Shown: positions 2,363 to 5,052 of the stretch, piece by piece | How the letters are laid out: the number at the start of each line of letters is the position of its first letter | Position numbering within the stretch: position 1 is the stretch's first letter | Virus genome (UHGV): UHGV-0231044 | Length of the DNA stretch: 12,171 nucleotides | Reading direction: 5' to 3' (one strand) | Origin: a virus | Translations under genes and position numbers: made by a program | The notes under the pieces: generated by a model | What the model was told of the DNA's origin: nothing | The model's database searches: none | The model's input: only the letters and a program-made list of their open reading frames with translations

Positions 2363-2710
2363 TCAACTCACAGGAATGGTTAACGAAAGTGGCTGGCCGG
2401 TGTCGTTGTGCTGGCCGGTTAACGTGACCGTCATTCGCCCGTCAAAACTGCGCGCCGTAGTGACGGATGACAGGGTGACGCGGGGTTCCCATTTCAGCAC
2501 TGCCATGTAACAGGCGACCTTAATCTGCAACTCAAGCGCCGGGGTCTGTGGCTGGTCAATCATTGACGCCAGCAATGAGCCGTAATCACGACGCATCACC
2601 CGTGAGCCGACCGGCGTGCGCAGGATATCGCCGATACTCTGGCTGATATGCTCAAGGTCAGTGACAGTCAGGCCATCACTGCGATTCATTCCGAGATAAC
2701 GCGCTGTCAT
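2363..2710 (-). CDS. W: Baseplate wedge protein GpW (T4 gp25-like)
   Basis: 115-aa ORF (MTARYLGMNRSDGLTVTDLEHISQSIGDILRTPVGSRVMRRDYGSLL...), size and sequence typical of P2 gpW; 4-nt stop/start overlap with V. Confidence 0.9.
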   Translation of the reverse strand: MTARYLGMNRSDGLTVTDLEHISQSIGDILRTPVGSRVMRRDYGSLLASMIDQPQTPALELQIKVACYMAVLKWEPRVTLSSVTTARSFDGRMTVTLTGQHNDTGQPLSLTIPVS

Positions 2711-3336
2711 AGAGGTCCCCCGGTTGTGCCGCCGCTGTCGCCGGGGTGTTTATGGGTATGCAGTACCTTACCGTTTGATGAGAGCTCACCGCCGGTATGA
2801 GCGATGTTGCCGCGCATCGTCCCGCCCTTCTGTACTTCCAGCGTGCCGGTAATCAGCCTGTTGGTGCAGACCACCTCCGGTGTGTCCAGGGTGATGCGGG
2901 TTGACGCTTTCACCATGACCACCGGCACCGTGGCAGTAACAGAATCAGAAGCCGTCACGCTGGCCGTTTTAATTCCGCTTACCGTGAGTGCACTGGTTTC
3001 GGGTTCATACTCAATCACCGCCCCGTCAGGGAAACGGATATGCAGGGCATCAGACGACGCAGACGGCGCTGGGTTATCGCCGGAATAAATCCCCGGCAGA
3101 ACGAACGCCGTGTCGAGTTCACCGCCCACGGCCAGAATCAGCACCTGTTCCCCCACGGAAGGTGCCCACCATGTGCGCGAACGCCCAGCGCGATGGGTCA
3201 GCCACTGAAGCCAGTCGGTGCACATGCCGCCGGTCTGCACACGGCAGCGACCGGCATTAAGGTCGGTTTCGACGATAATGCCAGTGCGAATCATATTGCG
3301 TATAAAGCGAAGAATTTCATTGTATTGTGCATTCAT
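2707..3336 (-). CDS. V: Baseplate hub/spike protein GpV
   Basis: ORF track gives 2707..3414 but its first codon at 3414 is not ATG (TTG); first ATG is at 3336 (MNAQYNEILRFIRNMIRTGIIVETDLNAGRCRVQTGG...), giving 209 aa, consistent with P2 gpV length about 211 aa. C-terminal HTHKHPGDSGGTTG is the conserved spike tip. No obvious Shine-Dalgarno before 3336, so start is less certain than the rest. Confidence 0.85.
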   Translation of the reverse strand: MNAQYNEILRFIRNMIRTGIIVETDLNAGRCRVQTGGMCTDWLQWLTHRAGRSRTWWAPSVGEQVLILAVGGELDTAFVLPGIYSGDNPAPSASSDALHIRFPDGAVIEYEPETSALTVSGIKTASVTASDSVTATVPVVMVKASTRITLDTPEVVCTNRLITGTLEVQKGGTMRGNIAHTGGELSSNGKVLHTHKHPGDSGGTTGGPL

Positions 3337-3360
3337 TCGATAATAATGATTCTGTACAAT
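3332..3360 (+). promoter_or_regulatory. Candidate sigma70 promoter for the cargo gene (TTCATT - 17 bp - TACAAT), inside the 86-bp V/cargo divergent region
   Basis: Seen in sequence: -35-like ttcatt 3332-3337, 17-nt spacer, -10 tacaat 3355-3360 preceded by TG; about 60 nt upstream of ATG 3423. Prediction only; -35 is a weak match. Confidence 0.3.
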
Positions 3361-3422
3361 CTCGAAGTAAATCACACCACGATTTCTGGTGCACAGAACA
3401 ACAAGGGACAACAAAATCCATT

Positions 3423-4496
3423 ATGAGTACTTACTTTTTCTCGTCAGAAACAATGAAAGAATTGTTCAAAGATTATCTGGTCTTTTTGAACACGCTGACT
3501 CCCAGCACAAACTTTGAATCAAACAGAAACAAAATAATTGCTCAAGCAATAAACTTCATTTCCGAAAACCCTGAAGATTGGGACAAAAAATCCCAGTACA
3601 ACATTGCTATGATTGGCGACACCTTTAAAAGTTTCTTAAGAGAAAAGGGGGAAGATAACAACAGCATCAACCTTATATTCACTTGCTTTTTTAGATTTAT
3701 CATTGAACCAAGCATTCTCTCTCCGGAAATAGAGTCTCACTTTTCACCACTAAGAACCATCAAGGATTTTGCTCTGTATAACTATAATGAATTCGATGAG
3801 CGGAGCAGAGCACAGATAGACTTTTCTCTTAGAGAACTGCCATTAGCAATGGTTAAAGAAGTTTTAAGCTCCAGCAATGTTGACACATATAAAAAATACA
3901 TTGATAGTTTAAACGAAGGGCGTCAATTTTTCGAAAAGTGCGACTCCTTCTTAAAGGAGCAACATGCCAAAATAGAGTCAATTAAAGAGTCATTAAAAGG
4001 GTATGAGGTCGCATTTAATTTTGTTGGATTGTTTGATGGCTTTAATTCACTTGGCAAAAAGAAAGAAAGTGAAATCATGCTATCAAGAATAATTCTTATC
4101 ATCTTGGCTATAATCATTCCCTCCCCGCTGATATACTATGGAATGCATAAATTACCAACTCTGGAAACGACAAATGCTGCCACATATTTTATGTCAGCAC
4201 TACCTTTTGCATCAGTTACATTGATTTTTATGTATTACTTTAGAGTTGTACTGATAAATCATATATCGTTACGAACTCAGATTATGCAAATAGAACTCAG
4301 AAAGAGCCTTTGTCAGTTCATTCAGAGTTATAGCGACTATTCCTCAGAGATAAGGAAAAACAATCCGGAAGCGCTTTCAAAATTTGAAGACGTAGTATTT
4401 TCAAACATCATGCTATCCGATGATAAGATACCATCTACATTTGATGGTATTGAACAAATAGCATCGTTAATCAACGCATTGAAAAATGGCAAGTAA
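3423..4496 (+). CDS. Hypothetical membrane-anchored protein (357 aa), AT-rich cargo gene at the S/V (orf30-type) moron slot; candidate phage-exclusion/abortive-infection protein of unknown family
   Basis: Long ORF in strongly AT-rich DNA; ORF track extends to 3327 but ATG 3423 (MSTYFFSSETMKELF...) has AGGGA 12 nt upstream and avoids overlap with V start. Two hydrophobic helices near the C-terminus (IMLSRIILIILAIIIPSPLIYYGM and AATYFMSALPFASVTLIFMYYFRVVLI, about nt 4075-4265). Ends TAA 4494-4496 followed immediately by a hairpin terminator. No Walker, HxH, DEAD or nuclease-type motifs seen by eye. Confidence 0.8.
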   Translation: MSTYFFSSETMKELFKDYLVFLNTLTPSTNFESNRNKIIAQAINFISENPEDWDKKSQYNIAMIGDTFKSFLREKGEDNNSINLIFTCFFRFIIEPSILSPEIESHFSPLRTIKDFALYNYNEFDERSRAQIDFSLRELPLAMVKEVLSSSNVDTYKKYIDSLNEGRQFFEKCDSFLKEQHAKIESIKESLKGYEVAFNFVGLFDGFNSLGKKKESEIMLSRIILIILAIIIPSPLIYYGMHKLPTLETTNAATYFMSALPFASVTLIFMYYFRVVLINHISLRTQIMQIELRKSLCQFIQSYSDYSSEIRKNNPEALSKFEDVVFSNIMLSDDKIPSTFDGIEQIASLINALKNGK

Positions 4497-4500
4497 TGAT

Positions 4501-4530
4501 AAAAGGCCAATAACTGGCCTTTTATTTATT
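4501..4530. terminator. Rho-independent terminator hairpin (stem AAAAGGCCA / TGGCCTTTT, loop ATAAC, then ATTTATT); likely bidirectional for the cargo gene and the convergent late operon ending in S
   Basis: Seen in sequence: 4501-4509 aaaaggcca, loop 4510-4514, 4515-4523 tggcctttt (perfect 9-bp inverted repeat) followed by T-rich run; lies 5 nt after cargo stop and 70 nt beyond the S stop on the other strand. Confidence 0.6.
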
Positions 4531-4599
4531 AACGTAAAGATTCAAAATAAATCATACTAAATCAAATAATTTCATTCTTATATTCTCAGATCAATAAAG

Positions 4600-5052
4600 C
4601 TAGCGATTCAGGTGAGCCAGAATAATCTCTTCAATCATCTGCACATCCTCACCGGTAAAGCCGAGCAGAGGACGCGCCGGATAATCAATTTTCTTACCGT
4701 CTTTCCGGTTTTCTTCCGACAGACCGAACTGATGCACGCAGGCGATTTTCGGTGACTTCCCGCCGTAAAATTCCATTGATGCCTGCTCCGGGCTGGCGCG
4801 GATATGCAAAAAACGACTGGTGATAAGTTTCGCAAACATTTTTCGCTTAACACGACCGGTCTTTTTTCTGGCGCTCTGCTGCTGGCGTGGCGCGTAGGGT
4901 GTGCCGTCCGGGGCTTTCTGTGCCATCACCCGACGCTGCTGACTCTGCCGCAGACGTTTCGCCAGTTCGGCGCTCAGTCGCCGACGCCCTGACGGTGACA
5001 GCGATTCAGTCAGTCCGGTCAGCCGGTCTTCAAAACGCTTAAACTCATTCAT
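4600..5052 (-). CDS. S: Tail completion protein GpS
   Basis: 150-aa ORF (MNEFKRFEDRLTGLTESLSPSGRRRLSAELAKRLRQSQQRR...), size and sequence typical of P2 gpS; overlaps R by 8 nt. Confidence 0.9.
   Translation of the reverse strand: MNEFKRFEDRLTGLTESLSPSGRRRLSAELAKRLRQSQQRRVMAQKAPDGTPYAPRQQQSARKKTGRVKRKMFAKLITSRFLHIRASPEQASMEFYGGKSPKIACVHQFGLSEENRKDGKKIDYPARPLLGFTGEDVQMIEEIILAHLNR

Follow-up and report, generated by a model that had tools for sequence, protein, structure and literature searches.

What occupies the interval between the tail-completion gene S and the baseplate gene V in the P2-like prophage sequence UHGV-0231044, and what might it do there? In the 12,171-nucleotide (nt) stretch of this genome that was analyzed, hereafter called the window, these two late genes are separated by an AT-rich segment whose only gene codes for a protein of 357 amino acids (aa) and runs antisense to all late genes. 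We conclude that this segment is a horizontally exchanged, non-essential cassette, that it occupies the S/V (orf30) slot, already known as a variable locus of P2-like phages, and that its cargo gene is real and under purifying selection. We have high confidence in this structural description of cassette and gene, taken alone. The function of the protein is a separate matter, for which we tentatively put forward an anti-phage role.

A swappable cassette between S and V

A sequence-only reading of the window had proposed an AT-rich island that begins within the first codons of V, ends at the S stop codon (4600) and shows an abrupt compositional break on both sides. Computation of the profile, which is not flat, bears out the break. 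The guanine-cytosine (GC) content of positions 3295-4599 is 0.340, compared to 0.569 elsewhere in the window. When measured in 200-nt intervals, GC content ranges from 0.28 to 0.375 across 3300-4599 and from 0.51 to 0.63 on either side, and no part of the window outside the island falls below 0.51. Four 300-nt intervals within the island lie 8.5-9.7 standard deviations under the 34 intervals outside it. Likewise, GC content at third codon positions is 0.378 for the cargo gene versus 0.59-0.66 for S and V.

The edges of the unit that is exchanged were located by alignment. On the left, the match to P2 and pro483 breaks off at 3295-3301, within V codons ~12-14, as had been claimed, and thus the first ~13 codons of V belong to the island. 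On the right, the proposed edge proved to be near the end of S but slightly short, because identity to P2 and pro483 picks up again only at ~4611 and the last two to three S codons therefore differ too. The V amino terminus MNAQYNEILRFIRN is common to the window and to the allele of Escherichia coli MS1737, and its counterpart in P2, pro483 and AHB3 is MNTLANIQELARALRN. The carboxy terminus of S reads HLNR in the cassette versus HLER or HLDR in the comparison sequences.

How might such a unit move? There is no recombinase gene in the cassette, and none of the hallmarks of insertion sequences or site-specific elements (terminal repeats, target duplication, recombinase) was found beyond a single edge repeat. 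This 19-nt imperfect direct repeat (16/19 matches; 3303-3321 and 4558-4576) lies just inside both island edges. It was considered as a trace of mobile-element origin and rejected as a product of chance, since 8 of 1000 shuffles equal it and neither the MS1737 allele nor other cassettes contain it. Given the lack of a recombinase and a repeat at chance level, we conclude that exchange proceeds via recombination in the conserved flanking genes rather than by site-specific insertion, which accounts for the presence of the first ~13 V codons and the last two to three S codons in the cassette.

Comparison with other prophages indicates that the backbone stays and the insert changes. The flanks are ~96% identical to P2 and its relatives, and just 46% of a 2.4-kb slot-spanning query aligns. 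The P2 occupant of the slot is orf30, which is likewise antisense. Among isolated phage records, pro483 has an S-to-V distance of only 66 nt and no insert, and P37 is also without one. When a 3.8-kb slot-spanning query was compared with 5426 complete E. coli genomes, the P2-like backbone was matched in 1648 (~30%) and the whole query length in 58. Island DNA alone was found in 60 of the 5426 genomes, in the chromosome every time. The gene is thus not one that sits at this position in essentially all P2-like phages, as it is carried by 58-60 of ~1,650 backbone-bearing E. coli genomes.

Slot contents were read from a systematic sample taken in even steps down a ranked list of 1651 E. coli records. 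About 35 slots are empty, ~14 hold an insert of orf30 type as judged by size, three hold the window cassette and four hold other cargo (shares of roughly 60% for empty slots, ~25% for P2 orf30 and ~7% for other cargo). The placement of the segment in a variable, non-essential slot, as proposed in the sequence-only reading, is upheld, with a conserved backbone around orf30, a 66-nt spacer or at least three further types of cargo. The orf30, Z and TO regions are three loci that commonly hold non-P2 genes (PMC3091744), and the source for the variability of the orf30 locus is Nilsson and Haggard-Ljungquist, as cited in PMC3091744. Phage R18C is reported to have a 741-bp open reading frame (ORF) of unknown function at the S/V position (PMC6823313). 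The occupants seen so far are the family of the window protein, Orf30, an ATPase resembling the candidate defense system PDC-S59, an HNH-like protein and a 247-aa protein with no family found. This slot is therefore a known type of variable locus, and the present cargo is a new occupant of it.

Divergence of the cargo gene relative to its neighbor likewise indicates cassette swapping. In comparison with the MS1737 allele, the synonymous divergence (dS) of the cargo gene is 0.29 and that of the adjacent S gene is 0.12. The corresponding values for the Escherichia albertii allele, whose product is 76% identical to the window protein, are 0.62 and 0.08. Cargo values so far above those of S mean that divergent alleles reside in near-identical backbones. 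At the same time, the ratio of nonsynonymous to synonymous divergence (dN/dS) for the whole gene is 0.117 with MS1737 and 0.235 with E. albertii. Constraint is strongest toward the carboxy terminus: the E. albertii comparison gives 0.10 for the C-terminal half and 0.32 for the N-terminal half, and across both comparisons the ranges are 0.09-0.10 and 0.12-0.32, respectively. The single antisense gene described in the sequence-only reading is confirmed with its 357-aa length. A mechanical ORF begins at GTG 3327 and would encode 389 aa, and the ATG start at 3423 is adopted because both the family alignment and the RefSeq/PGAP annotation of the sister allele support it.

The cassette has three features of a moron cassette of the P2 orf30 locus, namely orthologues of S and V as flanks, as judged from the P2 annotation and from tblastn with S, V, W and R, absence or replacement in close relatives, and a composition unlike the backbone. 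As in P2, the cargo is antisense at the same S-V position, is AT-rich, non-essential and horizontally acquired, and is bordered by a putative terminator on the S side and a candidate pV promoter region on the V side. Two differences set it apart. The window protein has 357 aa and two predicted transmembrane (TM) helices, whereas Orf30 has 261 aa and ~3 hydrophobic segments, and the window cassette also replaces the first ~13 V codons. No similarity to P2 Orf30 was detected at the sensitivity of tblastn, no profile-profile comparison having been made: when 50,697 phage records including P2 were searched with the window protein, only Yersinia and Klebsiella phages were matched. Pfam offers no family for either protein.

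Several relatives of the cassette show further arrangements of the slot. In a P2-like prophage of Pectobacterium zantedeschiae, a second gene lies between the cargo homologue and S (L009:5097-5729; 210 aa, late strand), and thus the slot can hold two genes. The product of this second gene has an ORF6N domain (E 2e-19) and weak matches to the candidate system PDC-S05. An IS200-type element with a Y1 transposase lies between the cargo homologue and S in E. albertii (L083:4157-4591). In Pantoea (L086:7065-7068) and Enterobacter hormaechei (L087:7068-7071), the cargo homologue and S, which lie on opposite strands, have 4 nt in common at their 3' ends, and this leaves no space there for a terminator hairpin of the window type.

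Table 1. Features of the window cassette, its cargo gene and its flanks, with other cargo found at the S/V position in E. coli. Positions are those of the window unless a locus (L) is named.
Feature	Position	Strand	Basis or remark
Whole swappable cassette	3295-4611		junction alignments versus P2/pro483; GC 0.34 versus 0.57
V (baseplate gene)	2707-3336	-	ORF map
Cassette-linked V 5' end, first ~13 codons (MNAQYNEILRFIRN)	3295-3336	-	two codons shorter than P2 V
Candidate V-operon late-promoter -10-like element, CATTAT/TATTAT	3340-3348	-	few bases upstream of V ATG
Candidate cargo promoter, weak -10-like TACAAT	3355-3360	+	by eye; overlaps V promoter region; not in consensus scan
Candidate Ogr-type late-activator site, TTGT-N10-AGAA	3384-3401	-	centered ~56 nt upstream of V ATG
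Cargo gene, 357 aa	3423-4496	+	antisense to all late genes; PHROG 9373
Variable N-terminal all-helical domain, codons 1-150	3423-3872	+	predicted cytoplasmic; entropy 1.9-2.6 bits
Long coiled-coil-like helix, codons 153-217	3879-4073	+	ends in conserved juxtamembrane motif AFNFVGLFDGFNSLGKKK
Predicted membrane hairpin, codons 218-280	4074-4262	+	TM1 218-240, loop 241-258, TM2 259-280
Most conserved module, codons 281-345 (QIELRKSLCQFIQSY, KFE..IFSNIM, KIPSTFDG)	4263-4457	+	predicted cytoplasmic; entropy 0.64-1.6 bits; contains invariant columns
Putative two-way intrinsic terminator hairpin	4499-4525		-16.2 (+) / -14.3 (-) kcal/mol; z -5.7 / -4.8
AT-rich 3' untranslated spacer of S plus cassette-specific last S codons and stop (HLNR*)	4526-4611	-	alignment, folding
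S (tail-completion gene)	4600-5052	-	ORF map; stop codon 4600-4602
Other cargo 1: 414-aa ATPase, E. coli KW21	L078:1450-2694	antisense	PADLOC candidate PDC-S59, E 3e-31
Other cargo 2: 247-aa protein, strain 504838	L079:1424-2167	antisense	no family found
Other cargo 3: 246-aa gene, isolate AHB3	L080:1421-2161	late-gene strand	weak HNH-like motif

Candidate transcription signals in the cassette

Apart from its gene, the cassette appears to carry signals that would serve the two late operons between which it lies. The hairpin downstream of the cargo gene is formed by an 11-bp perfect inverted repeat, carries a U-run on both strands and coincides with the position of a terminator between orf30 and S in the P2 record. 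It would be expected to stop both the cargo transcript on the plus strand and, after S, the O-operon transcript on the minus strand. A simple terminator scan did not list this hairpin. The adjoining spacer gave no stable structure on folding (z +1.76), and Rfam recognized no RNA families in the entire window.

The V-proximal end may contain the promoter of the V operon. According to the P2 record (AF063097; L002:1143), transcription of the V operon starts on the initial nucleotide of the V reading frame, so that the V message would be leaderless. The candidate -10-like element of the window lies within a few bases of the V start codon, as would fit such a leaderless start, and CATTAT is found at the same distance from V in the window, MS1737, P0005, Citrobacter, Erwinia (L006) and 504838. 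The P2 record also annotates a pV activator site between orf30 and V, and the candidate Ogr-type site of the window is in register with it, has a mismatch in one half-site and is identical in the MS1737 allele. The late-activator consensus is TGT-N12-ACA (PMC3931495). No canonical site of this form occurs in the V promoter region of the cassette, where we find just the degenerate version. A dyad, TTCTGGTGCACAGAA, spans 3382-3396, in part coinciding with the candidate activator site, and its center is ~53 nt upstream of V. A surrounding stretch of 43 nt shows no difference from the MS1737 allele despite a difference of ~8% between the genes, and a scan flagged nearby positions 3373-3393 as a minus-strand terminator-like hairpin.

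The sequence-only reading had also credited the cargo gene with its own promoter-like sequence and terminator. The hairpin supports the second half of this claim, and the first half has no backing from a consensus scan. In addition to the weak hexamer listed in Table 1, a second -10-like hexamer (GATAAT, 3339-3344) was noted by eye, and neither has a good -35 element.

The cargo protein and its family

What kind of protein does the cassette encode? Its sequence matches PHROG 9373 over the full length (E 3e-134; residues 13-356 on profile positions 7-387 of 388). This PHROG has no functional annotation, so membership names the family and explains nothing, and a literature search returned no mention of PHROG 9373, UniProt A0A3B7PGP4 or WP_087904339. 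A sequence profile search of the PDB gave a best E of 0.16, and Foldseek found nothing in BFVD at E <= 0.001. Structure searches recovered only generic helical hairpins and bundles, from which we draw no inference.

Conservation within the family was read from an alignment of 33 diverse members, 38 columns of which are invariant, and from a profile of per-column entropy. AlphaFold2 models the full protein as all-helical with a mean predicted local distance difference test (pLDDT) score of 78, and the N-terminal domain alone with pLDDT 93 and a predicted template modeling score of 0.89. This variable domain is followed by the long coiled-coil-like helix, which closes with AFNFVGL.GF..LG..K in the family alignment, and then by two hydrophobic segments with hydropathy peaks of 2.40 and 1.84. 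Lysine or arginine residues flank the hairpin on both sides, and therefore both termini are predicted to be cytoplasmic. The predicted topology thus comprises cytoplasmic N- and C-termini, two membrane helices and ~18 residues facing the periplasm. These residues form a short, nearly uncharged loop (one acidic residue) that is the least conserved part of the protein (2.93 bits). Conservation peaks in TM2 and in the cytoplasmic C-terminus.

Distant members reveal which parts of this architecture persist. Relatives from Methylobacillus, Undibacterium, a gammaproteobacterial metagenome-assembled genome (MAG) and a Klebsiella phage-plasmid all retain the coiled coil, the hairpin and the C-terminal module, and their N-terminal domains are unalignable, i.e. 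replaced. Pfam gave nothing for eight distant members. The phage-plasmid relative, from the 110-kb pJN2-26 (L085:3572-4738), has 388 aa, a different N-terminal domain, and 26-28% identity over the C-terminal two thirds. Its gene is a lone antisense gene between a primase and other genes of the replication region.

The family is large. A word-indexed database yielded 348 relatives, every one named hypothetical, and an exhaustive profile search gave 928 clusters (50% identity), of which the 150 listed are uniformly ~355 aa long. In Enterobacterales, 13 of the 14 members examined sit in the S/V slot of a P2-like prophage, always antisense. Their hosts are E. coli, E. albertii, a metagenome contig, Citrobacter, Yersinia phage vB_YenM_31.17, two Erwinia, Pectobacterium, Rouxiella, Symbiopectobacterium (a degraded copy), Pantoea, Enterobacter and Cronobacter. 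The remaining one, from Buttiauxella, is inserted alone amid housekeeping genes, between those for a U32 peptidase and yegS. Outside Enterobacterales, a scan of species-representative genomes found further members, none of them in a P2 context, in Gamma-, Beta- and Deltaproteobacteria, Nitrospirales, Bacteroidota and Sulfuricurvum. A member in Sedimenticola resides in the cargo region of an integrase-AlpA-primase island, and another shares its element with a D5 primase, putAbiC and resolvases. In all 57 of 57 loci, the GC content of the cargo homologue is below that of its flanks (mean 0.345 versus 0.493, a difference of 0.148), including in hosts above 60% GC, as fits a persistently mobile gene. 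C-terminal fragments occur in Halomonas (L062:3968-4303), Aquabacterium (L070:3821-4333), a Rhodospirillales MAG (L071:4001-4180) and Undibacterium (L072:4001-4111), and are apparently decayed copies.

Possible functions of the cargo protein

The reading that we tentatively favor is that the 357-aa protein is a prophage-expressed, single-protein anti-phage module, which is plausible from context and analogy and which we hold with somewhat less than even confidence. Under this proposal, the cargo gene would be expressed in the prophage state without reliance on the late operons, and the fast-evolving, sometimes replaced N-terminal helical domain would recognize something made by an infecting phage. 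The conserved unit of coiled coil, membrane hairpin and C-terminal module might then oligomerize, disturb the inner membrane and abort the infection. Once the prophage proceeds to its own late development, activation of the V promoter, which the candidate cargo promoter overlaps, would switch the cargo off.

Several observations argue for this possibility. First, a variable N-terminal domain is joined to a conserved C-terminal module, and distant members bear seemingly unrelated N-terminal domains. Second, the gene is an antisense solo gene in the S/V slots of P2-like prophages from several genera, and recurs in a phage-plasmid, an integrase island and a putAbiC element. Third, another S/V occupant, the ATPase of E. 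coli KW21, matches PDC-S59. This homologue shares the slot and the antisense orientation with the window cargo, but the two proteins are unrelated and PDC-S59 itself is just a candidate system. A fourth feature is suggestive. In a scan, run without a background control, of 150 genes within two positions of the family gene at 38 non-P2 loci, ~10 match defense or candidate models (PDC-S35, PDC-S20, HEC-06, JukA, ThsB, DRT and a type I specificity subunit being represented), in addition to two CAP12-TIR and two putAbiC genes.

Two-membrane-helix effectors of abortive infection are represented by the SLATT-type 2TM proteins of CBASS-like (cyclic-oligonucleotide-based anti-phage signaling) systems and by RexB-type membrane effectors. 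Like these, the window protein is predicted to combine a membrane hairpin with cytoplasmic helical domains, has no enzymatic motif, is carried on mobile elements and consists of a variable and a conserved part; the likeness is one of architecture only. Unlike them, it matches no SLATT model in Pfam and nothing in PADLOC at E <= 1, and no partner sensor gene is present. A BFVD match to a SLATT-domain protein was discarded as insignificant (E 1.3).

Other results weigh against an anti-phage function. Searches of defense-model and Pfam collections, which the sequence-only reading had recommended for this protein, came back empty: no family of Pfam, NCBIfam or PADLOC v2.0.0 was matched, and the only Pfam entries at E <= 1 were DUF3810, Mlp and MOV-10_N, all far below cut-offs. 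A profile search with the C-terminal module found only truncated copies and no fusion to known sensor or effector domains. Upstream of the cargo gene, a consensus scan gave no sigma-70 match of at least 9/12, and expression in a lysogen is therefore assumed. The signal from the uncontrolled scan of 150 neighboring genes is modest, most of these are housekeeping genes, and six matches to mad3 models probably reflect histidine kinases. There is no evident positive selection, with dN/dS below 1 throughout the two allele comparisons. Finally, the gene has long been tied to a single slot in different Peduoviridae genera, which might point to a P2-specific role instead of general defense.

The locus itself offers less precedent than had been supposed. 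The sequence-only reading called the slot a prime place for a lysogenic-conversion or anti-phage module by analogy with phage-exclusion genes. The genomic context does make such a module plausible, and the case is still one of analogy and context with no PADLOC match. The precedent does not extend to this slot, because the exclusion genes that have been characterized belong to the other two P2 loci, and the P2-locus literature searched gives no function to orf30 or to any S/V occupant. Like the S/V slot, the Z/fun and tin/old hotspots are variable, non-essential loci of the same phage family in which alternative cargo is swapped between near-identical backbones. They differ in having experimentally validated anti-phage occupants (PMC9122126, PMC9519451), none being demonstrated for the S/V slot in those papers, and the literature on P2 defense hotspots, these papers included, does not treat S/V as a separate one. 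Furthermore, most of the occupied S/V slots contain just one short gene, with two in the P. zantedeschiae prophage. A broader proposal is that the protein is the first of a new and widespread family of anti-phage systems that each consist of one protein, with a swappable cytoplasmic sensor, a coiled coil and a two-helix membrane effector, and that S/V is a third, unmined P2 defense hotspot. We regard this broader proposal as doubtful.

If the protein does not act against phages, it might be a membrane protein of lysogenic conversion that benefits the lysogen in another way, for example through envelope stress tolerance, signaling or interaction with the host. The absence of a match to any defense model is what such a protein would show, many family members are solo genes among housekeeping genes, as in Buttiauxella, and genes other than those for defense are known from P2 hotspots, among them cytolethal distending toxin and partition systems (PMC9122126). 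We nevertheless consider a host-fitness role rather unlikely. A conserved module with a variable domain, low GC content at all loci compared, and recurrent positions in prophages, phage-plasmids and islands are more typical of conflict genes, and Pfam detects no transport, enzymatic or signaling domain.

Superinfection exclusion would require that an inner-membrane protein of the lysogen block entry of an incoming phage genome without killing the cell. Known exclusion proteins include several small proteins of the inner membrane (HK97 gp15, P22 SieA, T4 Imm). The cargo gene is prophage-borne and antisense to the late genes, its product is predicted to lie in the inner membrane, and Orf30, the P2 occupant of the slot, also has ~3 hydrophobic segments. 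However, nearly nothing of the protein is predicted to be exposed to the periplasm, and the loop that is exposed is the part that varies most, conservation being concentrated in TM2 and the cytoplasmic C-terminus. The family is also widespread outside prophages in several phyla. For these reasons, chiefly the first, we judge this explanation quite unlikely.

Could the protein instead serve the P2-like phage's own cycle, for instance in lysis timing, assembly or control of the V operon? This would explain its fixed place beside V, which is kept in position and orientation by 13 of 14 Enterobacterales members even though S and V proteins are only 40-80% identical between Peduoviridae lineages, and it might also explain the overlap of the cassette with the V promoter and that of the cargo 3' end with S in Pantoea and Enterobacter. 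Such a role is very improbable, because the slot is empty in ~60% of sampled E. coli P2-like prophages and in the isolated phages pro483 and P37, and because non-phage homologues exist in Beta-, Delta- and Gammaproteobacteria, Nitrospirales and Bacteroidota. The gene is also antisense to the late operons, with no late-promoter motif in its own direction. Least probable of all is a selfish or decaying, functionless passenger kept by linkage to the promoter and terminator of the cassette, for although truncated or remnant copies (L062, L070-L072), many short matches in the C-terminal-module search and the IS200 element beside the E. albertii copy hint at decay, dN/dS values of 0.12-0.24 argue against it, as do the intact 357-aa frame across alleles, the invariant columns and the uniform length noted above.

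We therefore return to the anti-phage module as the reading that we put forward, with the reservations given. Two variable loci of P2-like phages have already yielded many new anti-phage systems, and the S/V slot holds at least five alternative types of cargo. If the cargo is defensive, it would represent a compact single-gene system of broad taxonomic range, and the slot would be a further small hotspot to mine; if it is not, the gene would be an ordinary prophage passenger. In either case, its family is large and uncharacterized, and the cassette shows how accessory genes can be exchanged inside an essential late gene cluster, in this case together with the adjoining ends of the essential genes on either side, the candidate late promoter and the putative operon terminator.

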